From: Neodothiora populina
Lineage: Eukaryota
Assembly (NCBI RefSeq): GCF_041146345.1
Contig: NW_027191415.1
Coordinates: 1,364,001 to 1,421,346, forward strand
DNA: 57,346 nt
Direction: 5' to 3'
Shown: positions 23,418 to 57,346 of the stretch, in pieces
Numbering within the stretch: position 1 is the stretch's first letter
Layout of the letters: every line of letters starts with the position of its first letter
Position numbers and translations under genes: made by a program
Notes under the pieces: model-generated
What the model was told of the DNA's origin: nothing
What the model saw: the letters and a program-made list of their open reading frames with translations, nothing else
The model's database searches: none

Positions 23418-25499
23418 TCATCGCTTCTTTGTACTGGTAGTCTTCGCAGTAGAACTGGTTGTCGTCTTCTTGTCATCACTTTTTGTCGAAGCACTGCTTG
23501 TGACAGAGGCAGAGGATGTCGGAGCGGCACTCGTCGGCGTGGCTGAGCTGCTAGAAGAAGGTGCTGCACTTCCAGAAGACTTGATGGAAGTCTGTAAGGT
23601 AGTGGCGGTATGGGTGCTCCAGTAAGTCTCTAGTGCACCTTCGACTTCGTCGGCATTCTTGTAAGCTTCCAAGCTGATGAACCATTCGCATTTCTTGCCG
23701 ATTTTTTCATCCTCGAAATCACCATCTCGGCTCTGCCACTCTTCTTCTTTAAATCCCTTGGAGCGGTAAGTTGAGTCCATCGGATCCAAGAATGTAGTCT
23801 TTTCATCGTAGCCGAGATCTTTTATGGCTTTGACATCCATCGCAGCCATCATCTCATGGTCCTCATGGATCAGATTGTGGCAATGGAACATATAAAGGCC
23901 ATCCCATGGAGCATAGCTAGGGAGCATGAGTTAGTTCCTAAAATTCTCAAGATGGGAGCATGCTGCTTACCGAGCAATGACTTTGACGGTCTCGCCTCTG
24001 TTCAGCCATACCACATCTTTCAGACCTGCTGCCTCGTATGGTAGAACCGTGTTCCTTTCTCCACCACTTCGATTGAGGATCTGAAAGTCAATAAGGTGGA
24101 TGTGGATTGGATGGGTCCAACCACCAGATGAGTTTTCCAATTCCCAGACTTCGACAGCTCCTCTCTCGGGTTTGGCAATGACTCTGGCTTCTGGACCAGA
24201 AGCCCAACTGATGCCATTGACTTGCCACTGACCGTTGCTGCGCTCGAATTTGAAATGACGATCAACAGTGTCTTTCTTTGGAGGGTACTTCACGCTACGG
24301 AGGGTAGCAGGCAATGGGCCATTACCGTCTTGGGATGTGATCTTGGACCCGATCACAAACCGCATGACCTTATCTGTGCCGGCGTAGTCATCATCGGCGC
24401 CAACTTTACGGTTGTTGCGAAGGGTAACATTTTGACCCTCATAACCAGTGAAGTCGAAGACGATTTCCCAACGCTCTGCCATCGAAATATCAAGCTGGGT
24501 CGCTGGGATTGGTTTTGTCAATAGACCAGTGTCGGAACCAATGACATTGAAACCAAGCCTTGTGCCTGCTTTTTTGTCTGCTTCGAAGTACATCTGGAAA
24601 GATCTACTGATGGACGAGTCCAAGAAACGGAAGCGGTACTTGCGAGGCTCAACTGCCATGTATGGCCAAGGCTGACCGTTGACCTGGATAACATCACCGA
24701 AGACGCTCACCGTCTCACCATTTGCCTCCGGAGACCACAATGAGCCGTCGGAGTTGTATCGTTTTGCTGCCAACGCAAGAGGTACATCATACTGCCCCAT
24801 GGGGAGGTTCGACGCACGTTCCTGGGCATCGTGCATGATGTAAAATCCAGCTTGACCAGAGTATGCATTCTCCTATCGAAGGTGTTAGTGTATACAGCTT
24901 CCCTTCTCATAAATATACTACACACTGCAGTATGATCGATGGCATGATCGTGATACCAAAGTGTCCTTGCATTCTGAGCATTGGGATAGTAATAGTCCTT
25001 GTACTGTCCAGGTTCGGTTGTGTCCTCGGCCCAGCCATCGAAAGGAGCCCGACCTGAAGAGCGACTTAGCATGCCACAAGTCTCAAACTATCAGAAACCG
25101 TATGCATACTGTATGATCCATGAAGATGGACCGAATTGGCTCTGTCTGCATGGTTGACAAAGCGGACAACGGCTTCTCTGCCTCGCTCCACCATGAAAGT
25201 TGGGCCAGGAACCATGCCATCATAACCCACGTGTCTCGTCTTCTTCAGATTGGGATAGATCTGAAGGTCCACTGGTTTGATATCGATTTCGTAGTAGTCC
25301 AAGTTATCATAAGATCTTCATTGTGGTTAGTAGTGGTAATCATGAGATGTCTATCCTTCACTCACTTGTAGGGTGTCTTGATTGGCGGTATAGGTAGAGG
25401 ATACTGGTAGAAGTCCTTGTATACAGGACTCAACCACTCCGTGTCTTTAGCCACAGCTAAGGAGCCAAGAAGGCCAAGTGCTAATGCCAGTGAATGCAT
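23418..25499 (-). CDS. Bilirubin-oxidase-type secreted multicopper oxidase; join(25499..25366,25315..25110,25053..24926,24872..23971,23916..23418), 622 aa
   Basis: Signal peptide MHSLALALGLLGSLAVA. All four Cu motifs present: VHLHG, WYHDH, WTHPIHIH and HCHNLIHEDHEM (Met axial ligand). BOD-specific SRAPFDGWAED. Four GT-AG introns keep the frame. Ser/Thr-rich tail. Confidence 0.93.
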
Positions 25500-35066: not shown

Positions 35067-35817
35067 GCTGCTTAAATTACTACAGAGACAGGCACGAAAC
35101 TATTTAAGAACTTTAACGTCCGAATTAGGAAGAGCGAGGTAGCTTAAACACTCCTCGTTAAGGACCTTGCAGAATAAAGGCGTTTAGAAGCCTAGACACT
35201 AAGAACGAACAGATAGGGTTAATACATATGGAGGCTAGATGCAGCTCTTTTAAGCAAGCACACGCTTAAGCTCTACGGAGCGCTGAACTCCGAGCAAGCG
35301 GGTATTCTCGTATAAGTAAGAACGAACCATACTTATCTCCGATCCTATTTAGTAAAGATCGGAGTCGAGGAAAGTAGTAAATGCGAATACAGGCAGGAAG
35401 ACGAGACAGTAGCTTACGTGCTTCTTTAATGCTAGCGCTAAATAAGCATACAAGCAGAACTTAAGCAGATAGCAGGAAACAGATAAGGTGACTTGTCCTT
35501 TCTACTAAAAGGGTATAGTAAGAAAAGAGAAATGCACATAGATTAGCTAGTAAATAGCCCGCTCGAGTAGTAGAGACCGAATTTGAAAATAGTGAAAGCG
35601 ACGGTCCGGTTTCTTTAATAGATAACCAGGATGGCAGCTATCCCTCCACAGCAACAGGAGGGTGGCGATTAAGGAACAAGGGGCGTTAGGGTTCTTCTTT
35701 TATTATCCGTGAGGCTAAGCAACAGATAAGAAAACGAGGGAACGACATTAGACAGCTCATACGGACGATAAGACCGTGAATAGCTTGATAGACTAATCAA
35801 TCAATCAATCAATCAAT
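35067..35817 (+). mobile_element. LINE-B 3' fragment (post-RNase H region, CCHC finger, 3' UTR, (AATC)n tail), heavily RIP-mutated
   Basis: Degenerate KHTLKLYGAL..EQAGIL...RTNH..L..YL..IG....KCE...EDETV..VL. Colinear with the two minus-strand copies at 54.4-56.0 kb. Tail at 35795-35817. Confidence 0.88.
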
Positions 35818-36029
35818 AGGGGGACGCAATCATCAATTTCGGTCACCAAAATACCTGATTTTTGCATCAAAAGAAAGCGCATCAAGAGTAAAACCGTTAA
35901 CTATACGCGCACGACTGGCTTCTGCCTGGCGGATGCGCTGTAGCTCAGAGAAGCCGTTGGATATCCCGTCAACTCGACTGAACTCAAAATTTGCGACCTG
36001 GCCAAAGCTCCACCCTAGTGGGCTTCACG

Positions 36030-37325
36030 ATGGTCCCTGCAGCGGCGCCACGCCGCAACTCCAACCCAGCATCGCCAGAAAGTGCCGGAGCTGCGAGCAA
36101 AGATGCGCCGTTTGCGATGGTTACCCGCTCCCGCCGCCGAGGCGTTCTGAACGAAACCCCGCAGGACTGTATAACTGTGGGATCTCAGGAGACCCACAGG
36201 ACGGGGCACCCTATGTCCTCAGCTAGGTTAAGGGAGCCACAGCAGAACGACAGCACAAAGATCCTTGAGGCTGTCCGAACCCTGTCTACTGTGCCTGATC
36301 TGGTCCATAAATTGCAAGATGAACTCCAGAGACAAAACCAAAGCATTGAACTGCTCAAGAGTGGACAAGAGCAAGCACGACAGAAGCAGGAAGAACTTAT
36401 CTAGCAAAACTCTGCTCTCCAGGCACAGATCTCTAACTTGTCAGAACAAGTAGAGAAGTTGATACAGCAGGGTGGAAGAGCAAACCCAACTCCACCTCAG
36501 ACTTGGGCAAATGTGGCACGCAGGGGACATACGCTGGAACCGCCCAACCTCCCTAAGCAGGCAAAACCAAACCCTACTACACTCCGCCTCTTCACTTCTC
36601 TAGAGCCAACCGGATCCGAGGAAGTAAATGATAGCTTTACAAGATACATGCCAACGGAGAAAGCTACCACCATGATCACCCAAGCTCTTCAGAAGTATAG
36701 CCCTACAGTAGATGCACAGCTGCTTGGGGTTGGCAGCACCAAAACGGGTTACCTTTTGAGGTTCAGAAACGAAACTTCCACGGAGTTAGCTAAGAAAAAC
36801 AGTGACTGGACTAAGGACTTGGGACAGAGGTCAAGGGTCGTCACACCTCGCTTTGGGGTGGTAGCGCACCGCACCCCAACAGCGGAAGTTGACATGGACG
36901 AGAAAGAGGAATCAATAGAAAAGATCATGCGAGAGAACGAGCTCGCTAGCAAGGGTTCTTGTATTGAGGAGATTGCTTGGCTAAAGAAGAAAGATTTACC
37001 GCTCGGACAGTCAGCCTCTTTGGGAATCTGGTTCAGCTCTGCGGAAGCTGCCGAGCAAGCTGTCGCCCAAGGATTAGTTTTTGGTCAGAGGTTTGTCCCT
37101 ACTATCGAGCATTACCAGTCTCGAAGGAAGAGATGCTTCAGATGCCAAGGCATCGGGCACATTGCTTGGAACTGCAAGGAGAAGGAGAGATGCGACAACT
37201 GCTGCGGAGAGCATAGCAGGCGTGACTGCACTGCCACTACCTTGAGATGCGCCGACTGTGGAGAGTCCCATCCTACAGACTCTGCTAGCTGCAATAGCAC
37301 ACTGGGATCCTCCCGGCTGCAATGA
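36030..37325 (+). pseudogene. LINE-A ORF1 (gag-like) with one in-frame TAG at 36402
   Basis: Knuckles CFRCQGIGHIAWNC, CDNCCGEHSRRDC and CADCGESH. The stop aligns with CAG in the 30.9 kb relic. Confidence 0.9.
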
Positions 37326-40300
37326 GAGACACCCTAAAGATCCTCCAATTGAACATATACAAATCAAGGCCTTGCATGGAGGCACTTATTAACGACACCA
37401 CCACAGCAGATTTAGATATCCTCCTTATCCAGGAACCCCCGGTTTCCTTCTTCAAGACATTTGTGCAACACCGACAATGGCAAGCACACACCCCAACCTA
37501 CCAGGGAACTGAGAGAAAGCGGGCTATGCTCTACATTAACAAGAGAATCTCTACATCAACATATCAACAGATCAGATGCGACAGCCCGGATGTCACTGCA
37601 ATCCAAATTCAAACACCACATGGACCTGTCAGCATCTACTCGGTCTATGTTCCACTAATTGGAGGTACATTTCAGGCAGCGGAGAAGGAGATGCTGGACA
37701 CTCTACATGCAATCCAGGCAACACAAGCTAGTCATAACACCGACCCAAGTGATAGCATGATCATGTGTGGAGACCTCAACAGACAAGACCCATTATGGGG
37801 AGGCGATCACATCCAGCCATACCGGGTTGGTAATGCAGCCTCTCTCCTCCTGTTTATGCAGGACCGAGGTCTCCAAAGCCACTTGGAAAGAGGCACTCCC
37901 ACGTGCTGGTCTACAACTAGACCAGGGAGCAGGACAACTCTGGACCTAGTGCTCAGTAACATCCACTCTCGTCTCCTTAAATGCTCTCTCTATCACAACA
38001 ACTACGGATCAGACCATCGTGCTATCTTTGCGGAATGGAGCATATCCCTCCAGCACAAAGAAGAAAGGCCAGCAAGAAGAGTGTATGAACGTACGGACTA
38101 GGAGAAGGTCGGAGAAAGCCTCCGGGCAACTCTCGGAACCCTTTAGGAAATCACAAACACAGACGAGCTAGATGAGGCGGTGGCCAACCTAGTTGACACA
38201 ACCACAAATCTAGTCATTCAGCACACACCAATAGCTAAGCCATGCCCATACTCAAAGCGCTGGTTCACACCGGAGCTAAAAGAACACTAAGCAAGACACA
38301 ACAAACAACGCAGATTCTAGCAATCCTGTTGTGCAGCTAGAGGTCGGGATGACCCCTTCACACAAAGTCAATTTCAAGAGATGCAGAAGCTACGCAAAAC
38401 GTGGACGAGGGCTGTCGAGCACGCTAAGAGTAGCCACTGGAAGGACTTCCTGGACCAAGCTGGAAAGGGGAACCTCTGGAAAGCTGCAAAGTACACCCAC
38501 CACAAGGATCAATACGCGCCCATACCACCTCTCACATCAGAAGGGAGGACTGCTACCACTAGCGAAGACAAAGCACAAATGCTGCTAGAGACATTCTTCC
38601 CTACACCAGTCCAACCTGCCACCTTGATGGAGCCCTCCAGAGAGGTAGCACTGAGCTGGAATCCACTCACCAAAGCGGAGATTCACTAAAGCCTCCTTAC
38701 CAGTAGAGGACAATCAACCCCGGGTCCTGACTCACTTCCTACGCTTGTGTGGCAGAAGCTCTGGCCGTACATCTCTGACACAGTCCACCAAATCTTTACA
38801 GGCAGCATAGACCTGGGTCACCATTTAACAGCATGGAGGACAGCCGCTATAGTGGTCCTACAGAAGCCTCATAAGGCAGACAAAACCGTCCCCAATGCCT
38901 ACAGGCCTATCTCGCTTCTCAACACCTTGGGGAAGGTTTTAGAAGCTGTCATGGCAAAAAGACTATCCTTTTACGCCGAGAAACATAACCTACTCCCGGA
39001 CACGCAGTTTGGAGGCAGACCGGGCAGGTCCAATGAACAAGCTCTTTTGATTCTAATGGATGCTATCTGGTCGGCATGGAGGCAACAGAAAGTGCTATCC
39101 CTTATGTCATTCGACTTGAAGGGCGCCTTCAACGGAGTGAATAGCTTAGTGTTAGACTAATGCCTGCAGCAAAGACGCATCCCGGGAAAGATGAGGACAT
39201 GGATTCAAAGCTTTATGACAGCACGCAAAGCGTCTGTAATACTAGACGGACACACTAAACTAGAAACATACCTTGAACACCCAGGAATCCCACAGGGATC
39301 GCCTCTGTCACCAATACTTTTTGCCTTCTTTAACGCTAATCTAATAAAGCAACCGGTGGATTTCATAGGAGGAGCCTCGGCCTACATCGATGACTACTTT
39401 CGCTAGCGCATTAAGCCGTCAGCACAGAGCAACCTATCCAAGCTCTAGAGAGAGGATATCCCAAGGATTAAACAATGGGCAAGGCAGACTGGTGCATGCT
39501 TTGAACCAAGCAAGACGGAGCTCATTCACTTCTTAAGAAATAAGTCGCAACACTGGCCCACAACAATCACAATGGGCAATCACGAAGTGAAGCCAAGTGG
39601 GACATGCAAGCTCCTAAGGGTTATATTTGACTAAGAGTTAAGGTGGAAGCCGCACGTGCAGAAAGCATTCAGCCGAGCCACAAAAACCTGTCTAGCCATA
39701 GGCCACCTCCACCACCTCCGGCCAAAACAGATGCGGTAACTATACTAAGCCTGTGTCATCCCTCAGATGGATTATGCATCCACCGTGTGGCACTCCCTTA
39801 AAAGCTGCAAATGGCGGCTTTCTGTACTGTCTAGAGTGCAACGCTAAGCCATAATTAGGACAATTTCAGCATTTAAAACAGTGGCAACAGAAACGCTGGA
39901 CACAGAGACCTTCCTGCTGCTAACAAAGCTTAGGCTTCAGCAGAGATCAGCGAGAGTCATTATAGGCCTGCAGGCGCTCCTAGACAAACATCCGGCGCAT
40001 TAAGTCCTTTAAAGAGCTCTTCGGAACCTCAGCCACACGAACAGCTTCTTAAGCCCACTTCATTCCATGTTAAAATCTCTTAACCTAGACCGAACGGATG
40101 AGGCAGAAACGATCGACACCTGCCCACCTCCACCTTAAGAGCAGTCCCCATTCGTAGCAATCACATCGAAATTAACAAGCGAAGAGGCTATTAAGGCGAT
40201 AGAGCAAGCCGTCTCCGAGTTACTTAAGTCTGTCGTCTACACCGATGCAGCAAGCAAGAATGGGAACTTAAGCGCAGCGGCAGTTATTATAGATCAACAC

Positions 40301-41230
40301 TTACAGATACAGTCAAGCTCTGCCATTGGAGTAAGGTCGAGTAATCACTACTCTGTTCACGCAGCAGAGATGATTGCTATCCACTCTGGCATACACCTAG
40401 CTGCAGACCAACACGTGCGAAGCTACATGCTGAAGCCGCACTTATACATTGTTGCTTGTGACTTTAAGACCGCACTTCAAGCCATTTCCAAACCAGCAAG
40501 GCGTGCTTCTGGCTAACATATAGTGAGGACAATCTATAAAACAGCACAGTTCTATCGAGAAAGTCTAGGCATCCGGTTCAAGCTGCAGTAGATCCCTAGC
40601 TACAGCAAAATCTCAGGAAACGAGCTAGCCGACAAACTGGCTAAGCGAGCTACATCTCAGCTAACGAGACACGATTTCAAGAGTCTTCTAACCGTTCAGA
40701 GGCAAGCTATCCAGCAGGACACGCTCAAGCAGTGGAGGACTGAGTGGAGAGCCTCAGTAAAAGGGCAACACCCACGCAAGGTCGATGCCGCCACACTAGG
40801 CCCACATGTTCGACACCTATACGATGATTTACCAAGGAACAGAGCGAACCTACTAGCCCAACTACGAACAGGCCACTGCTGGCTTAAAGCTTATCGCATG
40901 AAGATTGGCTACGAAGATAATGACAAGTGCGAGTGTGGGGAACCGGAAACAGTGGAACACGTGCTAATGGAGTGTCCCTTACTACAACAACTAAGAGCCA
41001 AGCTACACGAGAAGATTAGAGACAAGTCGAAAAGGCTTTCGTCAATACTAGGTGGAAAGCCGCACCCACGACAGCTATCGCTAGCAGGCGCACAAGACGA
41101 CGAGGACAGAACACGCACAGACGGCAATAGCAGTGAACGCTGGAAAATCACCTCTACGGAGCTTACTGCAGTGCTGGACTTTGCAGAAGACTCGCAGAGG
41201 TTTACAAGAAAGGAGAACACAGAAGACTGA
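37322..41230 (+). pseudogene. LINE-A ORF2 (endonuclease-reverse transcriptase-RNase H) with many in-frame stops
   Basis: LQLN, LIQEP, GDLN and SDH (APE); YRPISLL, QFGGR, DLKGAF, GIPQGSPLSP and YIDD (RT); YTDA and GNELADKLA (RNase H); CECGEPETVEHVLMEC. Confidence 0.93.
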
Positions 41231-42777: not shown

Positions 42778-44755
42778 CTATTCTATACGAGCATGGAAAT
42801 CTCTACGTAGACTCTGAGCTAACCGTAAAGCCCGCTCTCGAGTATCTGAAGATATGAGAAACATGCCAAGTTTGACTGGATTGTCCGGGATCGTCGAACC
42901 TTGCGGGAAGAACCAGCAATGATAATCGATATAGGTTATAAGGGCTGGTCGCAGCGCTCGTAGTTCTGCCAAGGCATCTCCAGTCTTAAGAACACCTCCT
43001 TTATGCGAGTTGATGTAGACCATGACGCAGTGGCGTTGAGGTCCGGAGAGGAATTGTTCCGAGAGTGCAGAGAACCGTTCCGGCTCTTCTAGTGCTGCGA
43101 GAAGATGCAGAGCAGTATAGTCCACACCAAAATTGAGCGCTGTAACCCAAGTGGCACCAGATCCCGGAGGTCGCTGATTTATCTCCAATAAGAAAGCTTC
43201 CGGAGCCTTTGTGTTTGTCTGGCCGTGCAGGCGTATGTCTAGGTAGCCATCCTCCTCAAGATAGCTGAGTGCAGAATTCCTTATACGACCTTCAACGTGG
43301 TATATACCTGTACGAAAACCCGCGCGTAGTAAGGTTTTATGAAATGCGGACCGAATCATGACTTGTTCGGAGAGCGGATGAGCGGACGGCCATACCATGT
43401 CCGTCTCGAGAAAGTCTTTGGATTTGTCTATGCCACTTCCTATCTCTGCAGTACAAGGGAAGCCGTCCACTAATTCGAAAAAAAGGATCTTCCCACCCTG
43501 GAGGACAAAGTTGGCATCAATCTCCGGTCCTCGCTCATAAGTCTCGATCATGATGTCGATGCCGTTGTATGCATCTGCCAATTTGCTGACTGCACTGGTG
43601 AGCTCATCATGGTCAGACACTAAGTAGACACCATTAGAGCCCCAACCAAAGCATGGCTTGGCGATAACGGGATAAATGAGCGGCTCCTTCGTGCTTCTCA
43701 GTTGGGTTTCCAAATCAGATACTCCCGTGACCCGTATCGCCTCCGCGTTTCCTTGATTCTTGGCTTGCGTGAGATGCTTATCAGTGCTCGTTTGGACACT
43801 TTCGAGAGGTGCAGTCCTGAGGCCAAGCCTCTTCGCTGCCTCAGCCGTGGCGATGAAACATGCATCCGTGAAGGTACAGATCCCATCAAACCCCTGCTTA
43901 TCTCCAGATAAAGCCTGCACAACGCGATTAGAGAGCCCGAAATCTGGGGACATGTCAATGGGAATGTATTGCTCTATGACATCAGGTGCGTCAGCTTGCT
44001 GCAACCATTGACCTTGCGCACCAACAACTGTGAGACGAAGCCCCATGTGAAAAGCTGAGGCTAGCCATCTCTCCATCACTATTGGAGGGCGACATCCCAC
44101 CAGAATAAGTCGAGGGTGACGCAAAGGACTTGGCACAATCCAGGTACACGAAAGTCGATCAGACAGCATTCTGTCCATTGCTTCCATCTTATCTCCCATG
44201 GACCCCGATTGATCTTGTTGGACGACGACGGCACCCACAACAAACTCAAGAATCTCGTGAAGATGAACATGTTGACTCAAACCCGGGAGATAAGCATGGA
44301 CGTGATCTGTGGGTTCAAGAAAGGACACCACAAAGTCGACAGACTTGCAAAACGTCAACCTTTGCAGCAAGAAATCAGACCGTACTACATATCCCGATTG
44401 TAGAGAGAGAAGCAGTTTGACACCGCTCTCTTTCTCAGATGGCTGCTCTTGAGTCTTTCGTGCCATTGACAAAAGGAACTCTGTTGCTCTTGCAGACTGT
44501 TTACTTGATCTTGTTCCATCTTGTCTTGGCGTTTGAGACAGGCCAATGTCTCCAGGCAAGTAGTCTTGACTCTGCCAATACTTCGACTGCTGATCATGAT
44601 GAAAGACCACATCAATCGTCAAATACGTCTTGCTAGCTGATGCAGCTATCTTAGCATCTCTGAGGCGCCACGAGTAGGGGAAATGTCCTGTAAGTTTGTT
44701 AGATTATATCTGCGCTCTGTCAAGACGAGACGTGTGAACCTTTATCGTTGAACAT
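42778..44755 (-). CDS. ATP-grasp amino-acid ligase (FsqD/L-amino-acid-ligase-like); probable join(44755..44740,44687..42778), about 641 aa
   Basis: Intact frame with IAKPCFGWGSNGV, IETYERGPEIDAN, FLET, YHVEGR and LLEINQRPPG ATP-grasp motifs. The short first exon is inferred from a CTAAC...CAG acceptor; its donor (GTTCAC) is weak. Confidence 0.88.
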
Positions 44756-46941
44756 TACTGCGGTGTTTAAGCAGTTCAATCTTACGACTGTCGGAAGTAC
44801 GTGGCAAGTGACTAGGAAGCTGTGGTCCGTAACGTGTAGCTATTCAAGAAATATGCTGACCGGCTGTATCACAAGCAAATGTCGGACTTTTTCAGAGGCA
44901 TCATGATGATTATATAGTGCATTCAATGCTCTGCGGTGACCACGGAGTATCAGACCATGAAATGCTTCTCGTCGTACGTCTTGCATCCCATTCTTTGACT
45001 AGTTTCGGAGATCAGATACTGTCATCTAGGCTCTAAGTCCGATCTCCGATGACAAAAATATCCGAGCTCGATGTGTTGCAGGCTGCTCGGAGATTCTGCA
45101 TTTGCATTTCGAGAACTGTATGAGTACCTTCGCAAGTTGTGGCTCTCTATGTAAGAAACCTTTCGACGCAGTTGCTGCTCTTTCAAGGTATAGGAAAGAA
45201 GCAAAATGTTTGTTTCTATATGGGAGGTTGCGAACCTGGCTGTATCTCTGCTTTCTGGTTTCAATTCTGACTGCAGCTTATATCTTCCAAAACTAGGTCC
45301 AGTAGAAGCTATATACCGCCAAGCTCCATGTCGTAGAGCTTTCTAATCTTTGGCCATTGACAAACGACTAGCTACTGTAGATATCTCGTACAATCATGTT
45401 CGAAGAGTATTTTACACTAATCACGTGATCATAGTCGGAGTTGGAGCCGAAACCAGAGGTGGGACCAGCTTCGCAACCTCTGTGACAACCCTCGAGCTAC
45501 GCAATGGATTCGCGGCGAGAAAACGTGACTCTTAAGGTAACACTTGGTCATTTCGAAGCCTGCAAATACGCTTACGCTGCACCTAGATGTCCGTTGTATA
45601 GTTTATAGTACAATATGTAACTTGCAGGTCTCGTGCATTACTGGTCTCTCTAGACTACAACTAAGTGTATGTAGTTACGATATCTGCAGTACGCCTTAGA
45701 GATGATCCTCATGTCAGGTAGTCGTCACACCTTCCTATTTACCCTAGACTGATCCACATCAGGAACGGATCATACTGAAATGCTTCCTGAAAAGGAAGGC
45801 GTGTGCTAGATTACAGTACAGCTACTAGCAATTCCCGCTTGTGGATAATCAAGACGCATTGACCTGATCCACAGTAGGCATCGTTGCCTCGTAAGCCATG
45901 CACTGCGCTGGTTTCGCTGCATAACGCGCGACATGAACCAGATCCAGAGATTTGAATTTGGTGGGTCGCGCAGTCAAGAGATATCTTCAAGGCCTCTGGT
46001 TCTTTCCTCGGGGTACCGTACCTTACGATTAGACCATTTTCGTCGCGCGGTGATTCACATGCTTTTTTTGTCTAATACTGTAGGTAAAGGAAGGCTCGAA
46101 TTCCGAAATTGATGGGTCCACTACTTTGTGGATGACAGAATATTAAAGCTACAGTAAGGTACATTAGCGCCATTTTGATTCAAATCCTTTCAATACGACG
46201 CTTTCCTAGGATATCATCATGCAGACTGCGGGTCAAATAGATGGATGCGACTGATAGTGCTGATCCACAGATTGAGAACGGAGTAACAGAACTCATTGTG
46301 TTGCGGCCGTGTACAATCGACATCTCGCTACCCATCCTGTGAATGCATACGTAGTCCGTCCCTGACTCGATAAGGTGGCACAGTGAACGAGCTTAAGTAG
46401 CGCTCCAGGTTACTGTAGGTAAGGTAAGCACCTTACTGTACAGTGAGTCGGTACTATATACAGTACAGTACTGTATAATCCAATGTCACCACCTGGAAGC
46501 TTGGTCCAAGATAAGATAAGGTAGGAGGACAACTTTATCAAGGTACAGTAGTACTGCACGAAGGAGTTCGTTTCTAGTCTGTCAATATGCCGCAGGGACC
46601 TCAACTCAGCAAGAACGAACTCCTTCGTAATTATCTTACTTACAGTAAATCAAGGTACTGTACTGTACTGTACAAGTACAGCCTACGATCCTCTACAAGT
46701 GGAGACGCTAGGCAAGATCAAATTAACTCCCGGTCAAGCGAGCTTGGCGCGATACCGACCACCTTTTACTGCACGGGCGGGTGTACTGGCATGCCACTGT
46801 ACTCTTATTCTGCACATCCTCCCCTTAATAAGGCTCTCGTGATGCAACACATGTGTATCGCTCTCTACTGTTCATACCTGCATACGCTCGTACATCAACA
46901 ACATGCTCTGTACATGACTTGAGTACACCTCTTGCTCGAGA

Positions 46942-49484
46942 ATGACAAGCACATATCCTCTGTCCTCCGAAGGACCACAGCTTCATCGTGACTCGACCGT
47001 GCCGAGAAAGAAGCGTAAAACCTTAGCGTGCAATAATTGTCGTCGCCAAAAGCTTAGATGCGACCGTGCGAATCCTGTGTGTGGTCGATGCTACACTACG
47101 GGCTATGCCGACTTCTGTATGTATGGTCGCCTCGAGTCGGATCCCAAGCAACATCCCATCAACGAGAATCAAGAATTGGCAAATCATGAGACAAATGAGC
47201 ATTTTCAAAGGAGCGCTGGTTCTTACACAACGCTCCAATCAGCTGGCGCAGTGGCTTATACCACCTCCAACCATCCTTCTTCCACAGATCCTTTTGCTTT
47301 CCTGCCGCTCGACGTAGAAGGTACGGAGGAGGACTCACAACATGTTCGATCTCGAAGAAGCAGTCCAGAGACTCTGCAGAATAGACAACCATCCATTATG
47401 TGGCGTGGTCATGGTCAGACAAGTAGTGGGACAGCAACTGTAGAGCAAAGCACGACCGTAAAGCGCGCACGGGAAACGGAGCAAATGACCTTCAGAGGGA
47501 AGCTCTTTCAGACACAATATTTCGGTGCTACCAATCCCATCAGTTGGGGTGCTCAGGTGTGTCTTCTTCCATCAGCATTGAATTGGCTAGAGATTGATTG
47601 CATCAGTTTTCCGAGTTACAAAACTTTATGGTTGAGTCAATCAGTCGGGATAGCACCCTTGCACAGGTGCAGCGATCTCTCAAGACGTTACAGTTGCAAT
47701 GGAAGAAAGTCAAGCCAACTGTAGCCGAACTGGGAAATATCGATTCTCAGCATCTGCTTAATCTTCTTCCTGATCAGCCCACGGCAGAACGATTGATCAA
47801 CGTCTATTGGAGCACCTTCGAGACTACGCATCGCATATTATACAGGCCCAAATTCTGGATCGACTACCACATTTTATGGTCGAATCCTATGACGGCTTCG
47901 GCTGAGTTTGTTGTCATAGTCCTGCTTGCAATGGCATCTGTAAGCTGTATAATCCCACAGGAACGAATGTCGTATAAGGGCGACAGTTCTTCTCCTCGGG
48001 AGCGGGCCATAGCCTGGGTCGAAATTTGCGAACATTGGCTTGATCGACAAAGTCAGAAGAATATCTCTCTATCGCACTGGCAGGGTCGATGCTTGCTGCT
48101 ACTTGCGAAGATCTCCAATACCATCAAGAAAAAACAGACATGGAATGTCGCAGGAACCCTTATACGGCAAGCGATGTCAGCTGGATTCCACAAGGACCCC
48201 AGCCTACTGGGTACACCGATGAATCTTTTCAATCAAGAAATGAGACGACGTTTATGGGCGACAATGGTCGAACTTGAACTTCAGGTATCCGTAGATAGAG
48301 GGATGCCCTCCGCAGCGGTAAACATATCATGGAGTGCCACGAATGTACTAAATGTGGAGGATGAAGAGCTTGGTGAAGGTGATGATGCATCGCTGAGACT
48401 GCACACCTGGAACTCACCCACCTCCGCATCTTTCCTACACATTGGCAGAAAAAGTCTCCCGCTTCGGCTGTCACTGAATACATTTCTCAACAACTCAAGC
48501 GAGCAGATCACGCATGATAGTGCTTTTGATTACGACGAACAGTTGAAACACCATTTGCAGGAAATTGGCACTTACTACCCAAGCTTTGAAGTGGAAGGGT
48601 TGGTGGACGCCGTCCCCAGTCTGTCCGAAGCTCTTCTGGTAATTCAACTTCAACAATATTTACTGCTGTTGCACACCCCTTTTGCCATAAAATTAGATTC
48701 GAGTGCCCGGCATTCAGCTTCCAGGCTGGCGTGTCTGGATGCAGCGAGCGCGATTATGGAGAAATGCTCCAAGCTCTCTGTGATTGACTATAATGTCATC
48801 TCCCTCTCACGCACCGAAGTGTTCCGGTCCGCTTTCGTTACTTGTCAAGTCATCGAGGCAATGAGGGGTCTCCAACGTAAGTAGATGTGCATCGATATCA
48901 CTGCTGCTGTCGCTGTACATGCTAACACGTATCAGACGAAAAATTGCTACAGCGACTGGGCAACAGTTTGCACGGATATCTGGATATGGTACTGGCAAGA
49001 CTGGGGGATAATATAACGCAGCTGGGTACAGGCTTCACTCACTATTGGTATATATCAGCCGCGAACAGGTTGCTTAAGTCAAGACTATCGTTAGCAGATG
49101 TTCAAGTCGAGCACAAAGTTGCTGTTGATCAGGTCATAAAGCAATATTATAAAGTGCTAGCTTCACAAGAAGATGTGTCCACTACAAGCGCACTAACCAA
49201 ATACCGGCAGACATACGGGGTTTGTGATGCATGCCCTTTGGCCAATTCTAATGCTAACCACGACGCAGTTAAACAGAGAGACCTTAAACACAATGGTCTA
49301 CGATACCAACGTTGCATCAGCAGAACCACAAGGAGCACAGGTAAGCATCGAGATCTTCCGCCGCATCAGTCATTTGTTGAAGTCATTCCATCTATAGGTC
49401 TCCTTCGAACTTCAGCCATTAGACCCACAGGTCGATGAGTTTTTCTTTGGCGATCCTGTAGCATGGACATTTGAGAATATTTAG
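46942..49484 (+). CDS. Zn(II)2Cys6 transcription factor with fungal TF middle domain; join(46942..47556,47607..48876,48936..49219,49269..49340,49398..49484), 775 aa
   Basis: ACNNCRRQKLRCDRANPVCGRC...C cluster; AMSAGFHKDP and EMRRRLWAT. Four GT-AG introns keep the frame. Confidence 0.9.
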
Positions 49485-50878
49485 TCGACCATACTGTGCG
49501 CATTGTTCTCCACGGGAGCTTCTGCACGCCCGATATGCTGGGAGTATTCGTTGAGGGTAAGGTCCACGTCGTGACTTGTAATCGACTGCTTATCAGCTAA
49601 GAGTTTCACTCTCTCGGTGCATATTTTATACTGTTCATCTGCCATGATGATGTTCAATTGGATCGCGCGGTTCTTTATTGCATTCCATCCTGTTAGCCGT
49701 GAAGCAAATTGGACATTTCTGGAGATACCAAAGTCGGCAGGATTGATCGATTCGTAAGTTTAAGGGTTGTTCAAAACAGCCTTTGCGTGAATACCGGCCT
49801 TATGATTGAATGCGCAGAAACCGGTGATGTAGTTGTTGAATGGTAGATTCAGCCCGAAAGCCTCCGTTACCATTAATTCCAAGTCCAGGAGCCCTTTTGC
49901 TTCGTATCTCGAGAGGACGTATTGACGATCTGTGACAATCATGCGTGCAAGGAAACCACCCAGCGGGACGACACCATTGCGTTGACCAAGACCAAGGACG
50001 GATGTCTCGATATGCATGACACCTGCTTCGACTGCGCAGAAGGCGTTCGCAATAGAGCAACCTGTATCATTCTGGAAGCCAGCTTAGAACTCACATCCGA
50101 CGACCCTATTCATCGTCCTGACTAGATCAAAAACCTGTCATGGATGAGCATCTCCTGTCGGATCGCCGATGACAACTCTATGCACGTCCTCCAAGTGGAG
50201 ATCGTTGCACAATGTTAAGAAGTTGGCCGGTTTCATTTGGAAGGCATCCTGGATTGACACAGACTTCAACCGCCATAAACCTGGCAAAGTTCAGAATTCC
50301 GATATATGTATCTTTCCACAATCCGGAACAAGGCGCCCATACTTGGTCTGGTATTCTTATTTGCCTGGAATTCATGAAATTGGTGACCATGACAGCAGCT
50401 CCGTTGGTTCACTTACAGTCCTTGCACGCCTAACTGTACAGCTAGTCGTGCCTCGTCAAGATCACATTCGACCTCTGCGGTGACCTTGTTACGTCATGTG
50501 AGTAAGTGACAACATTTGGTTTGACTTTTCAGCGACCACCTTCGACTTCTTGAGACGCATCTGACATATCTCGGCACACTGATTCTTCATATCCTCAGAG
50601 ATCGCGGGGCTTTAGAGTAGAATCTGTAGACTCACAATGGGTATGAGAAGATTCCAAGTAAGTGATTGTATAGGTCGGTGGGTACTTACATAGTCCACTC
50701 CAAAGCCATCGAGAGCTTGTACCAGCTTCTGCTCGAATTCCCTTCCGCAGAATGTGTTTGACAAGAAGCCGCCGTTGTAGAGAGTCGTGTCGACTATCTT
50801 TTAGTCACTGGGATGGCTGCCATTTCGACTTTTATCTCGTAGATCTCCATGTGGTCTGACAATATCTCTCGACTGCAT
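49481..50878 (-). pseudogene. Homocitrate-synthase-like (Lys20/21/Lys4 family) pseudogene
   Basis: [53 protein letters not shown] and ASRLTGWNAIK. Three introns are recognisable. In-frame stops at 50801, 50612, 50138, 50084 and 49760, plus a frameshift near 50255. Confidence 0.88.
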
Positions 50879-51431
50879 TGCTCCTTTGCGACGGGACAAG
50901 CAACTTTATCTACTCCAAGCGTATGAAATTAACCCTGACTGGGAGCAAAAAGAGGTCAAGCTACAGCGTGTGTAGTCACTTGGGTGGCTTAGAGCTGATC
51001 ACAATTTGGACCTGAGAACGGTACTTCATGATGAATATCATGAACTGTGGTGTCGGCATTGATGCTTATCAAGTTTCGTACGTTTAGGCTGAGAAGTCCG
51101 ACTGACGTAGGTTGATGTTGTAGTAAGTCATCAACCTTATCTTATCTAATCTTCGATTTTCGCGTGATTCCAATGTTAGGCGTCTCCGATTGGATGTATG
51201 TTCGGAGATGAGAGCTGATTAGATCGGACATCTTCGGGCTTTTGATACATGCTCGGCTTTGACTGCATACGTCCAGATATAAGTATCTGGCCCATATGAT
51301 ATCTATGTCCGAAAAGGAACTTCATCTGATACCCGCGCAGCCGACACAGACAGCAAAATTCGATTTGCTTGTTGAAACTTGACATTTTTGTCTCACGAAT
51401 AAGATGAAAACAGTGTACGTACTGACACTAC

Positions 51432-53462
51432 ATGAAGCCAGAAGCAAGACCTGAACTTGTTTACAGAGTCATTGCGGAAAATCGTGACGATTCTACGATT
51501 GAGGAGGAAGCTGAGAATCTTCAAGAAAGTAAAATTGAGAAGCAGACGAAAGTCAGCCCAAAACGAGAACATGAGTATCACAAAGACTGTGATGACCAAG
51601 ATGAGTCTGGACTTCGCCGAGTCCCAGGCAGGATACCAGCTGCTGTGTGGCTGGTTTCCCTTGCATCAATGTGTGAGCGATTCGCATACTATGCATTTCT
51701 TGGACCTTTACGTAAGAAGTCGTCATTTGTCGAACTTCTCAACATTACCTAAAGCTGACGGTCTGAAGAAAACTACGTGCAGAACCGCCGCGGGGATCCC
51801 GTTAGACCTGGAGCGCTCGGGTTGGGAGAATCTAAAGCATCAATGCTTGTTACAATATTCCTGCTTATCAGCTATGTGACGCCTACCTTAGCAGCCGTGG
51901 TCTCCGATAACTACCTGGGTAAATTCCGTACCATATCAATCTCACTGGTGTAAGCAATTCTCTTGATAGACATGGCTCCATCATTACAATTGTCAACGTT
52001 GGACTGACTTCAACATAGGCTGTACATCGTGGGGATTGTGGTTCTTCTTATAACGTCTATTCCGAGTCTACTTGCACGTGGCTCTGGCATACCTGGATTT
52101 GTGATATCAATATTGATTGTTAGCATGGGTACATCTGGGGTAAAAGCAGCCTTACCACCATTTCTCGGTAAGTACCTCCATTCGCAGGCTAAAATAAATA
52201 CTCAACTCTATTCCCAGCTGAGCAGTGTGGAGCTGGCAAGAACGAAATCAAGACTACAAAGAAAGGAGAACGCTATGTTGTTGACTCTGACGCAACTCGG
52301 GAATACGCATTCAACATATACTATTGGTACAGCGAGCCCCATATGACAGTCGGGAATCTTTGAACTGAACATGTAACACAGGTGTGTTAATATTGGAGCC
52401 CAATCGCGAATCCCAGCAACTTTCATTGAGAAGAGTGTCGGATTTTGGTTGACATTTCTCATGTCTGCGGTATCCTTAGTCCTGTCCTTGTTGGTGTTCG
52501 TAGGCGGGAAAAGTATGTACTGTAAGTTCACTACGTTCATAAAACTCTTCTCAGCATAGTAATTTCGATCAGTGAAAGAGGAACGGCAGCCAAGCATGTT
52601 GCCAAAGGCACGTCAGGCGTTCACTATTGCCGCGAGGCACGGCTTCAAGATGGATGCAGCCATACCTGCAAACACGCTCGAGCGTGATCATAAAACGGTA
52701 CCTTGGAATAATGGCTTTATTGAGGAGTTGAAGATTGGCCTAGTTGCATGCCGTGCTTTGTACGATCCAATACTAGACATAGCATTTTGTATCTACTAAC
52801 TCTTCTTTAGCATTCCCTTCTCGATTTTCATTCTATGCCAGAATCAGATGTCAACAAATACAGTCTCTCAGGCAGGAGAGATGAGAACACATGGTGTGCC
52901 TAACGACCTGTTGCCGAATGTCAACTCCATCACTGTTATCATCTTGATGCCGATCATAACCCATGTCTTATATCCGCTGCTCCGCCGGTGGAACATCGCT
53001 TTCCCTCCGATCACGCGTATCGCAGTAGGCTTTGCATTCGAGTCTCTAGGTATGGGATACGCTGCAGGCATCCAAGGCTGGATATACAGTTCTGGGCCAT
53101 GTTACACACACCCCCTAGCCTGTCCCGCATCGAAGAACGGAACGATAGCGAACAACGTCCACATCGCAACGCAGATTCCTGTCTACGTTCTTGAAGGGCT
53201 AAGCGAATCCTTCGCGTTTCCAGCTAGCTACGAGTATGCGTATACCAAGGCTCCGAAAAGCATGAAATCAGTTCTGCAGTCAGTCCTTTCGCTCTCTTTT
53301 GCTGCCGCAGCGATTATAGGACTTGCCTTGAGTCCAACCTATCACGACCCGTATCTTCTTGCAATGTACGCTAGCTTAGCAGGAGTCATGCTGCTCACAA
53401 CACTGATCTTTATTGCTGTGTTCTGGAAATATAATAAATTGGAAGCAGGAATTAGACATTGA
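51432..53462 (+). CDS. POT/PTR-family di/tripeptide transporter; join(51432..51711,51769..51949,52019..52167,52218..52326,52382..52521,52573..52759,52811..53462), 565 aa
   Basis: CERFAYY, QNYVQN, PGALGLG, D.YLGKFRTI, YWCVNIG, SQAG.M..HGVPND and EYAYTKAP.SMKS. Six canonical introns; frame intact. Confidence 0.92.
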
Positions 53463-54151
53463 GTTGGGGGACCGCATAGAGAGTTTGGAACAGGAAGAAT
53501 AGAGAACGTTTGATTTATAGGAGTCTAAACACATTCTGAATGCGGATCAATAGCAAAGTGGAAACAGACCGAACGAGAGTGACATCCTCCAATGGTCACT
53601 TATGATAGGCAGAGTCAATCCATATAATGTAGGGCTAAGCTAGCGGCTGAATCGTCATTATGTACGGAGTACGGAGTATATGATTTCCCCAAGAATCGAC
53701 CCCGGCTCCAAGTGGCCTGGACCAACGTCATTTGAGGGATACTACTCAGGCGATTGATCGCGTATATCCAAAAGCACTGCTTCTCAATTATGCTTCCTAC
53801 GGCTAGGTCCAGTATGCCGCCTTCACACTCTTCAAACAGGTTGGACGTTTTGATGTTGCTGCATCTTTTGGTTTCTAGAACCATGTCGGAGAAGCAAGAG
53901 CCAGCTTCTTCACCAGTGTAGTCCGTGGACTCTAGCGAGCAAGAGCTCCAAGCCGCCAGGAACCCAATTGCGTAAAGTGTGTACAGAGTTTGGCTTGTCC
54001 AAGGCCTCTATTCCTGGGCAAGAGCAGCATTCTACGGCCTGAGCCAAAAATTCCGTGTATCTCCACCGATTCACCCTCGAATATGGCATCAAGCTGATTG
54101 ATACTATATTGAAATTATTTCATCTGGTATGTGTACATCTACCGGTGATAC

Positions 54152-54446
54152 CTAAGTAGATACTGGTTGGTTATTAAGAACCCAATTTACTCCATCGACA
54201 ACGATCTCCGGTTGCGTTAATTGGACAAAGTGTCCGCTCTCGGTGGCAAAGACAAGCTCGCTCTTAGTAGAGAGCTCCAGAAACCTCTTCATAAGCCCAG
54301 CGTTCTTCTCATCGATATCCGCGATCAAATCTCTTACATAGCTCCTTTCCTCCTCGGTCCTATTGCCCATAGCAATCCCCGCCCTATACAAGCCACTCCA
54401 ATCTCTACTCCGCATGCCGCCAATCACAAAAACCGGGCTACCCAGT
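54152..54446 (-). pseudogene. 3' remnant of an alpha/beta-hydrolase gene truncated by LINE-B
   Basis: LGSPVFVIGG...LELSTKSELVFATESGHFVQLTQPEIVVDGVNWVL contains the catalytic-His motif (SGH.VQ...PE). Upstream sequence is replaced by the LINE tail. Confidence 0.75.
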
Positions 54447-55250
54447 ATTGATTGATTGATTGATTGATTAGTCTATCAAGCTATTCACGGTCTTATCGTC
54501 CGTATGAGCTGTCCAATGTCGTTCCCTCGTTTTCTTGTCTGTTGCTTAGCCTCACAGATAATAAAAGAAGAACCCTAACGCCCCTTGTTCCTTAATCGCT
54601 ACCCTCCTGTTGCTGTGGAGGGATAGCTGCTATCCTGGTTGTCTATTAAAGAAACCGGACCGTCGCTTTCACTATTTTCAAATTCGGTCTCTACTACTCA
54701 AGCGGGCTATCTACTAGCTAATCTGTGTGCATTTCTCTTTTCTTACTGTACCCTTTTAGTAAAAAGGACAAGTTACTTTATCTGTTCCCTACTATCTGCT
54801 TAAGTTCTGCTTGTATGCTTATTTAACGCTAGCACTAGAGAAGCACGTAAGCTACTGTCTTATCTTCCTGCCTGCATTTGCATTTACTACTTTCCTCGAC
54901 TTTAATCTTTACTAAATAGGATCGGAGATGAGTATAGTTCGTTCTTACTTGTACGAGAATACCCGCTTGCTCGGAGTTTAGCGCTCCGTAAAGCTTAAGC
55001 GTGTGCTTGCTTAAGAGAGCTGCATCTAGCTTCTATGTGTATTGACCCCATCTGTTTGTTCTTAGTGTCTAGGCTTCTAAACGCCTTTGTTCTACAAGGT
55101 CCTTAACGAGGAGTGTTTAGACTACCCCGCTCTTCCTAATTCGGACGTTAGAGTTTCTAAATAGTTTCGTGCCTGTCTCTGTAGTAGTCTAGGCAGCCTA
55201 GTGAGCACATTCGTTTCCTGCATTTCCTGTATGTGCTGGTACCTACCCAC
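54447..55250 (-). mobile_element. LINE-B 3' fragment (RNase H end WVPAH.GN.GNE to the (AATC)n tail), RIP-mutated
   Basis: Colinear with 35067-35817 and 55253-56050. Differences checked in the 3' region are C>T/G>A. Confidence 0.9.
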
Positions 55251-55252
55251 AA

Positions 55253-57242
55253 TGATTGATTGATTGATTGATTGATTAGTCTATCAAGCTATTCACGGTC
55301 TTATCGTCCGTATGAGCTGTTTAATGTTGTTCCCTCGTTTTCTTGTCTGTTGCTTAGCCTCACAAATAATAAAAGAAGAACCCTAACGCCCCTTATTCCT
55401 TAATCGCCACCCTCCTGTTGCTATGAAGGGATAGCTGCCATCCTGGTTATCTGTTAAAGAAACCGGACTGTCGCTTTCACTATTTTTAAATTCGGTCTCT
55501 ACTACTTAAGCGGGCTATCTACTAGCTAATCTGTGTGCATTTCTCTTTTCTTACTATACCCTCCTAGTAGAAAGGACAAGTTACTTTATCTGTTCCCTGC
55601 TATCTGCTTAAGTTCTGCTTGTATACTTATTTAGCGCTAGCATTAGAGAAGCACGTAAGCTACTATCTTGTCTTCCTGCTTGCATTTGCATTTACTACTT
55701 TCCTCGACTTTAATCTTTACTAAATAGGATCGGAGATGAGTATAGTTCGTTCTTGCTTGTACGAGAATACCCGCTTGCTCGGAGTTTAGCGCTCCGTAGA
55801 GCTTAAGCGTATACTTGCCTAAAAGAGCTGCATCTAGCCTTTATATATATTAACCCCATCTGTTCGTTCTTAGTGTCTAGGCTTCTAGACGCCTTTGTTC
55901 TATAAGGTCCTTAACGAGGAGTGTTTAGACTACCCCGCTCTCCCTAATTCGGATGTTAGAGTTCCTAAATAGTTTCGTGCCTGTCTCTGTAGTAGTCTAA
56001 GCAGCCTGATAAGCACATTCGTTTCCTGCATTTCCTGTATGTGCTAATACTTAAACAAAGGTCACGTTAAGTCTACTCCGTTCGGCGTCTCGAAGCGTTT
56101 GGAGGGTGCCTTAAAGTGCTTCCCTGCCTTGCTTAGTACTGTTGCCCTTCACTATAGCTTAAAGTGCCTCTTGGCTGTCTATGGCAATCACATGCTTATA
56201 GTTCGGACCGTGTAAGGTGAGGATATGATTTAACGCCATCTTTATCGCTTGTAGCTCCGCAGATAGGACCGAGCATGTCTTAGCTCATCTAATAGTCGCC
56301 TTGTCTACAACTCGTGGTGTAGACGAACCGACCTTTCTTACTACTGCACACCCGCTTACCCTATTCTGCACGGAAGCGTCGGTATATAAAACCACAGGCC
56401 CGTAGTTCTGTGCTGTACGTAGCTGTCTCCTTGCTTCATTTATATCTGCAATGTACTAAGTGGACCAGTCTTACCATAGAGGTGCTATCTACGGCTGTAG
56501 TAGTATTCGTGTCGGGCCGTTCTTTAAAGTATATCTCACCTTATGCTGCCGCTAAGTCCCATGTAGTAAAGACTACCACGTTTCTCCTTTAAATTTAATG
56601 TAACGGATACTTAACCACGCTAAATTGTCCTCCTCTGCTATAAAGATGGTCTGCAGGTGTTTAGCTACCTTCCTTGCCAGTCTGTCTGTTACTAGTTTAA
56701 GGGAGGCTTCTACCTCGAGGACTGCTGCTGATACTCGTTTAAAGGACCTTATTATAAGTTGGGCTTTTAGCTTCTAAACTCGCTATAGTTTATTAATGTG
56801 TCGTTCTATTCCCCACTTGCCTCTGCTGAACTAGGAGGACGCTGCGTAGTCCGTAGTAGGTATGATTACCGAGCAATACAGCTGCCGCATCTAGTTTAGG
56901 CGCATACCCTTTAGTCTCGCTAGCGCTAGACACTTGACTGTGGCTGCTGTCGCTACTTTCTCGATATGGCTGTCCATTTGGAGCTTTCTGTTTAAGGTGA
57001 CCCTAAGGATCTTTATTTGGTCTTGGTCATGGATCTCTGTCTTGTTGAAATGTCCTTCGGTACCCTCCGTTCGATTAGCCTTCTGTAGAGTACCTCTGTG
57101 TGAACTCCGTTAAAGGCCCCTTGCACATTAAAGGTGACCATTAACAAGACTCTCTAGCCGCGCCATGCTTCGTAAATGCGTTTAATAAACACGTCGACCG
57201 CCTGTTCGCTTGACCTCATCGGCCGGCCCCCTATATGGCTCA
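55253..57242 (-). mobile_element. LINE-B copy (partial RT, RNase H, 3' UTR, tail), internally deleted and cut by the telomere
   Basis: From the telomere: SHIGGRPMRSSEQA...VTFNVQGAFNGV...RRVP, then a jump to IKIL(G)V...MRQLY.SV..PTTDYAAS. RNase H FYTDASV. Tail at 55253-55277. Confidence 0.9.
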
Positions 57243-57346
57243 TTAGGGTTAGGGTTAGGGTTAGGGTTAGGGTTAGGGTTAGGGTTAGGGTTAGGGTTAG
57301 GGTTAGGGTTAGGGTTAGGGTTAGGGTTAGGGTTAGGGTTAGGGTT
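57243..57346 (+). repeat. Telomere (TTAGGG)n, 17 perfect units to the end of the sequence
   Basis: Read directly. The G-rich strand runs 5'->3' toward the end, as expected for a right chromosome end. Confidence 0.99.

Follow-up and report, generated by a model that had tools for sequence, protein, structure and literature searches.

The stretch of DNA considered here, referred to below as the window, comprises 57,346 nucleotides of Neodothiora populina contig NW_027191415.1 (assembly GCF_041146345.1, positions 1,364,001 to 1,421,346, forward strand) and contains on its minus strand, at 49481..50878 in window coordinates, the remains of a gene resembling that for homocitrate synthase (HCS). 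The question raised by this locus is what the gene encoded before it was broken. An earlier note, prepared by a model from the letters alone, set the extent of the feature and proposed that its ancestor was a selected non-catalytic subunit in which the active site of the barrel had been erased and the trans-acting C-terminal lid retained. Comparison of the pseudogene with fungal and bacterial HCS and with an open-frame orthologue from Aureobasidium (P0123) suggests that the window's copy probably belongs to an old line of catalytically dead HCS paralogues and was itself inactivated only recently; this paralogue would have been selected for its C-terminal module and may have paired with housekeeping HCS.

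Membership of the HCS family was evident from the open pieces of the pseudogene, which matched an HMGL-like TIM barrel (Pfam PF00682, E = 1.4e-12) followed by the post-barrel domain HCS_D2 (PF22617, E = 6.1e-19 and 1.8e-08), and from the C-terminal 200 residues, which matched the structure of Schizosaccharomyces pombe HCS (3IVS_A) with E = 1.3e-68. The locus is an HCS pseudogene and is non-functional now. Between a possible ATG (50876-50878) and the natural stop codon TAA (49481-49483), the reading frame is interrupted by four in-frame stops (TAA at 50612-50614, TGA at 50138-50140, TAA at 50084-50086 and TAA at 49760-49762), by a further TAA (50801-50803) directly upstream of the first aligned codon and by a frameshift at approximately 50262, where two bases are missing relative to VQVSVKIQD of the orthologue. 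Translation of TAA as glutamine under an alternative code was considered and rejected, given that neighboring open reading frames (ORFs), read with the standard code, agree exactly with proteins in databases and that the frameshift would remain.

Exon boundaries were located by aligning housekeeping HCS proteins to the DNA with a program that allows for frameshifts and introns, and the splice sites were then inspected. The first exon remnant (KIVDTTLYNGGF...GVDY, 50690..50800) is identical to the fungal HCS consensus at 16 of 38 positions and keeps 11 of 25 invariant columns (defined below). It is followed, after GVDY, by a 66-nt intron 1 (50624..50689, GTAAGT..CAG), by exon remnant 2 (ILL*SPAISEDMKNQCAEICQMRLKKSK, 50540..50623), which contains the TAA at 50612-50614, by a 55-nt intron 2 after LK(K)SK (50485..50539, GTGGTC..AAG) and by exon remnant 3 (VTAEVECDLDEARLAVQLGVQG(L), 50417..50484). 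The 52-nt intron 3 (50365..50416, phase 2, GTAAGT..TTCCAG) takes into its 5' splice site a TAA at 50413-50415, which is not a true stop. The positions of introns 1 and 2 are also occupied in housekeeping HCS read-through ORFs (P0251, P0252 and P0254), and those of all three introns are shared with an HCS-like paralogue found on metagenome contigs (the L-type genes), one of which, L006, has a phase-2 intron at the codon of intron 3. The last exon starts with an open frame ((L)QIRIPDQVW...FMAVEV, 50262..50364) that is far from VDVVIGTS..GIEI of HCS, with 7 of 40 positions identical to the consensus, and ends at the frameshift. Beyond this lie eroded barrel strands 5-6 (50066..50260; 25 of 66 positions identical to the consensus and 17 of 39 invariant columns kept), a conserved module made up of the last barrel strands (TGC..GLGQRNG) and the first post-barrel part with the lid (49676..50065; 93 of 130 positions identical to the HCS consensus and 100 of 130 to P0123), and a more diverged subdomain II with a short tail (49484..49675; 20 of 44 identical to the consensus). 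Two short contigs (195 and 217 nt) from another study and under a second organism label cover only 49822-50229 of this gene at 99% identity or more, with one difference each; four sequencing runs were listed as carriers, of which three were examined. No RNA run carrying the pseudogene was noted among the listed sequencing runs.

Relative to fungal HCS, seven motif replacements had been listed in the earlier note, and all seven were present on the minus strand where it had placed them. Thus, STLREGEQ is replaced by TTLYNGGF (codons from 50779, with the YNGGF codons at 50765-50779), IELTS by ILL*S (the TAA at 50612-50614), THIRC by AEVEC in exon remnant 3, VDVV by LQIR (visible only once intron 3 is spliced out), RFSSED by a frameshift followed by SVSIQD, ADTVG by GDPTG (50153-50167) and HFHND by GFQND, in which one metal-binding His has become Gly (50078-50080) and the other Gln (50072-50074). 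The catalytic Glu has likewise become Gln (50249-50251). Positions are given below in the numbering of P0003, one of the fungal HCS, which equals that of Saccharomyces cerevisiae Lys20 plus 42, a correspondence verified at five residues to which PMC4330366 assigns roles: R31 for substrate, E32, H212 and H214 for metal and E155 for catalysis. At these sites, the window's copy has Y, N, G, Q and Q, respectively. The lid stretches, including ASRLTGWNAIK, are conserved as had been described, and the lid residues corresponding to Lys20 H309, A312, L314 and Y320 are all kept in both the window's copy and P0123. The in-frame TAA at 49760-49762 falls between the codons for the lid His (49787-49789) and the lid Tyr (49754-49756).

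Compared with working fungal HCS (S. cerevisiae Lys20 and Lys21, S. pombe Lys4; PDB 3IVS, 3IVT, 3IVU and 3MI3), the pseudogene is homologous, shares intron positions and likewise retains the GxGxRNG patch as well as the His, Ala and Tyr of the lid, but differs in the replacement of all three metal ligands (N, G and Q), the catalytic Glu (Q) and the strand-1 Arg (Y), in the absence of the long C-terminal tail, in the long stem of its clade (0.72 substitutions per site, see below) and in its stops and frameshift. Isopropylmalate synthase and citramalate synthase (6E1J, 3RMJ and 3BLE) were weaker matches to the pseudogene than HCS, and those enzymes keep the metal site. The metal ligands of a competent HCS or other DRE-TIM metallolyase are lost from the window's copy and, as far as both His are concerned, from P0123 (G and Q), the catalytic Glu is Q in both copies, and the substrate Arg is Y in the window's copy. 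The residues His103, Arg163, Ser165, Thr197 and Glu222 of the S. pombe enzyme are ones that we take to be ligands. To the claim that essentially every metal, 2-oxoglutarate and lysine ligand had been replaced there is one exception, in that the first Ser of RFSSED, in the 2-oxoglutarate region, is kept in the window's copy. The Arg of this motif is Ser in the Aureobasidium protein and lies at the frameshift, unaligned, in the window's copy.

To assess the distribution of these losses along the gene, the orthologue cluster was aligned with 126 fungal HCS of full length and 8 from bacteria (137 rows in all), and a column was called invariant where it was at least 95% conserved among the fungal sequences and the bacterial consensus had the same residue. 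Of 101 invariant columns at positions 66-258, 40 are kept in the pseudogene, as opposed to 70 of 82 at positions 259-432 (Fisher p = 2e-10), and over all columns it agrees with the consensus at 69 of 193 positions in the N-terminal part and at 113 of 174 in the C-terminal part. Working HCS enzymes show no such N-to-C gradient. Agreement between the bacterial and fungal consensus sequences was 0.66-0.88 in segments of the N-terminal part and 0.93 and 0.82 in the two conserved segments of the C-terminal part, and L006 keeps 90 of the 101 invariant columns at 66-258. This HCS-like paralogue, which served as a control, is independent and divergent, has its active site intact and played no part in the choice of columns. 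In the pseudogene, eroded sequence gives way to kept sequence within the barrel, immediately past the HxH motif, and not at the boundary between barrel and C-terminal domain, and the last barrel strands (TGC..GxGQRNG) are as well conserved as the lid. The contrast drawn in the earlier note between an erased barrel and a conserved lid was borne out as an asymmetry and has to be redrawn as to its limits, with the last barrel strands on the conserved side and subdomain II itself diverged.

Evidence that the asymmetry is older than the stops came from P0123, a 278-residue open frame in JGI/IMG that occurs on 15 contigs and was the best match to words taken from the eroded part of the pseudogene (52 proteins from 219 candidates). 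The cluster to which it belongs at 90% has four members, one of which has two NCBI accessions (KAI4762060.1 and KAI4779353.1) from two Aureobasidium sp. strains and is annotated as hypothetical. These Aureobasidium models (225-278 residues) cover the last exon only, and P0123 begins exactly at the site of the frameshift in the window's copy. The two sequences are identical at 150 of 259 positions and have in common 32 derived residues, counted where HCS sequences are at least 80% conserved, among them E197Q, H254G, H256Q and A225G. Thus, P0123 has IGDQAGG in place of IADTVGC, AGFQ in place of THFH and Q in place of the catalytic Glu, whereas the lid His, Ala and Tyr are kept and both copies carry GQRNGVV and NHKAGIH.KAVLNNPQTYESI. 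Like the pseudogene, P0123 keeps few invariant columns at 193-258 (14 of 39) as opposed to those that follow (68 of 82; p = 6e-7). The last exon of the window's copy has three stops, opposite R, Q and Q of P0123, which fits changes of CGA to TGA and of CAA to TAA. Loss of catalytic residues is thus common to independent lineages, as would be expected of an ancestor that was itself a pseudoenzyme. Intact orthologues that retain the strand-1 Arg-Glu pair and HxH, named in the earlier note as grounds for giving up its proposal, were looked for, and with respect to HxH, the catalytic Glu and ADTVG the answer from P0123 was clear in that all are gone; loss of the Arg-Glu pair was seen in the window's copy only, all four Aureobasidium models beginning at or after the equivalent of RFSSED.

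In a FastTree phylogeny with 59 tips (P0003 and 44 further fungal HCS drawn at random from the set of 126, 8 bacterial HCS, 4 L-type genes, P0123 and the pseudogene), P0123 and the pseudogene formed a clade with support of 1.0, a stem of 0.72 substitutions per site and terminal branches of 0.31 for the window's copy and 0.388 for P0123. This clade nested among HCS of Pezizomycotina. Searches with other queries did not extend it. Thus, the C-terminal 200 residues of the pseudogene, searched among longer proteins, recovered only housekeeping HCS that came from many fungal classes and were about equidistant (3670 of 4264 candidates), P0123 as query recovered no further member, the next matches being housekeeping HCS at 55% identity or less, and a metagenome scan with P0123 found no relative. 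In an exhaustive search, the N-terminal read-through frame P0250 gave five matches (three housekeeping read-through ORFs, one long repeat protein and P0255, which keeps REGEQ) and among these no dead-barrel N-terminus. P0255, on a 12380-nt contig outside the window (JGI/IMG and Logan), is an N-terminal exon ORF with a long leader and KIVDTTLREGEQF that has KIVDTT in common with the window's copy and is related to the L-type paralogue.

Changes that followed the split of the two lineages were counted at the protein level, the HCS consensus serving as outgroup, and for each lineage the count covered those sites at which its counterpart has retained the HCS residue. In the window's copy, change has occurred at 8 of 22 such sites in 193-258 and at 6 of 87 in 259-388 (p = 0.001), with no change at 44 sites in the lid region (332-388); the corresponding values for P0123 are 11 of 25 and 12 of 93 (p = 0.001), with 4 of 48 in the lid region. 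Because change after the split was uneven in both lineages, selection on the C-terminal module is indicated rather than plain neutral decay. Similarly, since 24 shared derived residues persist in 259-432, conversion from a housekeeping gene cannot explain the pattern. These findings support a history in which the active site was lost on the common stem, after which both lineages would have constrained the C-terminal module while the barrel drifted; the window's copy appears, from its changes, to have been neutral only briefly and to have died recently. Had the terminal branch of P0123 (0.388) been wholly neutral, its 278 codons should have gained approximately 4.9 stops, a rough estimate for which 3.3% of single-base changes were taken to give stops. 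The proposal of an asymmetry older than pseudogenisation and of a selected, non-catalytic ancestor gained in strength, both from the losses common to open-frame P0123 and from the concentration of change in the dead barrel of both lineages.

The course of events that we favor begins with a duplicate of a Pezizomycotina HCS gene, which in an ancestor common to N. populina and Aureobasidium lost the catalytic Glu, both metal His and the Thr of ADTVG while purifying selection would have persisted on the last barrel strands and the post-barrel domain that carries the lid. That the ancestral protein was full-length is likely because the N-terminal exons (positions 66-152) are still identical to HCS at 37 of 87 positions and have usable splice signals. 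Such a protein may have served as a non-catalytic subunit working through its C-terminal module, and the likeliest mode would be pairing with housekeeping HCS, in which the intact lid would complete the active site of the partner, its own barrel being inert, and could thereby alter activity or lysine feedback. In the genome examined here, the gene was later broken by four or five nonsense codons and a single frameshift. The pairing mode is modelled on known HCS dimers, in which, according to PMC4330366 and PMC8276798, the C-terminal subdomain of one subunit sits at the active center of the other and lid residues H309, I313, L314 and Y320 contact the catalytic part of the other monomer. Accessory domains adjacent to the opposite chain's catalytic domain are described more generally for DRE-TIM metallolyases in PMC9860122. 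By analogy with these dimers, an inert barrel with a preserved lid would be most simply explained as a partner that completes the site of another subunit.

The logic proposed here, a dead duplicate kept as a heteromer partner, is that of the prozymes of trypanosomatids (the dead paralogues of S-adenosylmethionine decarboxylase and deoxyhypusine synthase, which activate their active partners; PMC5201418 and PMC3663545). Those enzymes have unrelated folds and pathways, and the likeness is one of mechanism and not of family membership. A more specific version of the favored history, which we put forward tentatively and hold to be possible rather than probable, is that an undescribed clade of dead HCS persists intact in Aureobasidium as a prozyme-like lid donor that forms heterodimers with HCS of the Lys20/Lys21 type and retunes activity or lysine feedback, the window's copy being a lost member. 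No paper on a catalytically dead HCS paralogue was found in a full-text literature search, the coverage of which excluded most subscription journals.

Several observations weigh against this interpretation. The clade was found in only two lineages by word-index searches of a set of 5.8 billion proteins, and P0123, which is known as last-exon protein models of 225-278 residues, is taken to be a working gene from its open frame and pattern of change. Two members of its cluster have peculiarities, namely a His to Pro replacement at an otherwise invariant site in P0177 (THKAG) and, in the NCBI model P0175, omission of 26 residues, and these could mean that the gene is decaying in Aureobasidium as well. 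The conserved block includes barrel strands 7-8, which the donation of a lid does not itself require, and we infer heterodimerization with housekeeping HCS purely by analogy. There is also a mild tension in the window's copy between the number of nonsense codons and the small amount of missense change in the lid region, from which about one or two such codons would be expected.

The alternative that survives best, although we consider it unlikely, is that selection acted on a non-catalytic HCS paralogue which did not pair with the housekeeping enzyme, and was instead a homodimeric scaffold or regulator, a protein with a second role on chromatin like that of Lys20, or the partner of another protein such as a lid-less, barrel-only HCS paralogue. 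The catalytically dead lys20-E155A mutant of yeast still performs the DNA-damage function, and two Gly of the GxGxRNG patch are required for both functions of Lys20 (PMC4330366). The conserved block of the pseudogene, which holds barrel strands 7-8 together with this patch, would suit such a role. On the other hand, the moonlighting domain of Lys20 lies in the C-terminal tail (V399-I418 and a nuclear localization signal), for which there is no counterpart in the window's copy, which ends soon after subdomain II, and the best-kept residues of the pseudogene are those that touch the active site of a partner.

A potential partner of the barrel-only kind exists in other fungi in the form of HCS-like genes that lack exactly the lid region. 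This barrel-only paralogue was found on fungal metagenome contigs (L001:4915-5945, L002:10187-11253, L004:927-1953 and L006:10022-11051; also L003, L005 and L007-L009), is, like the pseudogene, divergent (approximately 58-60% identical to housekeeping HCS) and has introns at the same three positions. It is the mirror image of the pseudogene, having lost the lid and preserved REGEQ, RFSGED, ADTVG, HFHND and GIGERNG. A stop approximately 10 codons after PFNN is conserved in four contigs, with a remnant resembling SRLTGWNAIK right after it, and the L006 gene abuts a region of 25-32% GC. The existence of such genes would be in favor of a non-housekeeping partner if barrel-only and dead-barrel forms occur together in one genome. 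Grouping of the barrel-only type with the pseudogene clade had a FastTree support of 0.017, i.e., none.

Less likely still, and in our estimation improbable, is that selection only ever acted on a C-terminal mini-protein, composed of the post-barrel domain and the last strands of the barrel, the upstream barrel having been debris already in the common ancestor. All four Aureobasidium models are C-terminal only and P0123 begins at the window's frameshift, as this explanation would have it. Half of a TIM barrel is, however, unlikely to fold alone. Moreover, an upstream region free of constraint from before the split onward should be unrecognizable, given a terminal branch of 0.31 even under constraint, and the N-terminal exons instead keep the identity to HCS noted above, their frames are open, and their three introns stand at conserved positions and have GT..AG ends that could be used. 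Finally, the region 193-258 is equally eroded and yet lies inside the open frame of P0123.

Ordinary neutral decay of a once-catalytic HCS duplicate, with asymmetry due to chance, uneven mutation such as repeat-induced point mutation (RIP) or gene conversion at the 3' end, is very improbable, since the death of the gene, its location 8 kb from an element resembling a long interspersed nuclear element (LINE), where the window is lower in GC and carries repeats, and the fit of its last-exon stops to C-to-T changes are outweighed by the same losses in the open frame of P0123, by the uneven change after the split in both lineages and by the 24 shared derived residues, which are inconsistent with separate conversions by housekeeping genes.

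Two specific forms of such a process were also examined for the pseudogene. Recent gene conversion was rejected because the best identity to housekeeping HCS is flat across many classes, the C-terminal 200 residues being 59-67% identical to any of 120 HCS among the matches listed. A burst of RIP was rejected because indices in the pseudogene are normal (TpA/ApT 0.60, (CpA+TpG)/(ApC+GpT) 1.23), as they are in its neighbors, and because only 6 of 17 single-step lineage-specific missense changes could be C-to-T or G-to-A.

With regard to the surroundings of the pseudogene, the left part of the window contains housekeeping genes such as that for Sec6, and the right part has lower GC and the LINE-like retroelement, which is fragmented and spreads endonuclease-reverse transcriptase and RVT_1 matches over several ORFs on the plus strand (35792-41230). 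Adjacent to the pseudogene are an uninterrupted ATP-grasp ORF of 641 codons (42778-44703, minus strand), a Zn2Cys6 transcription factor gene (46918-49438, plus strand) and a gene for a POT/PTR2 peptide transporter (approximately 51426-53462, plus strand). The ATP-grasp protein is distantly like L-amino-acid ligases, its closest solved relatives being BL00235 (3VOT, E = 1.9e-08) and BacD (E = 9e-07). No polyketide synthase, nonribosomal peptide synthetase or terpene synthase was noted among ORFs of at least 130 residues in the window, and it is conceivable that the ATP-grasp, Zn2Cys6 and POT genes form a small dipeptide-type cluster around the pseudogene. A cluster product and a role of the HCS-like protein in precursor flux or self-resistance, as suggested in the earlier note, are hypothetical. 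Composition resembling that left by RIP (TpA/ApT 1.47, (CpA+TpG)/(ApC+GpT) 0.89) and few ORFs were seen at 53500-57346. Two adjacent ORFs with pieces of a multicopper oxidase (23418-24872, minus strand) could represent an intron-split laccase-like gene or another broken gene.

HCS catalyzes the committed, lysine-feedback-controlled step of fungal lysine synthesis and is a target both of antifungal work and of strain engineering. A selected subunit with a dead barrel and a live lid, if confirmed, would be the first pseudoenzyme reported in the HCS family and would provide a natural experiment on the control that the swapped lid exerts over the active site of its partner. The copy in the window is only a fossil, and the object on which these ideas can be tested is the Aureobasidium gene behind KAI4762060.1 and KAI4779353.1. 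More generally, the pattern in which a pseudogene has eroded can reveal the function of its ancestor.

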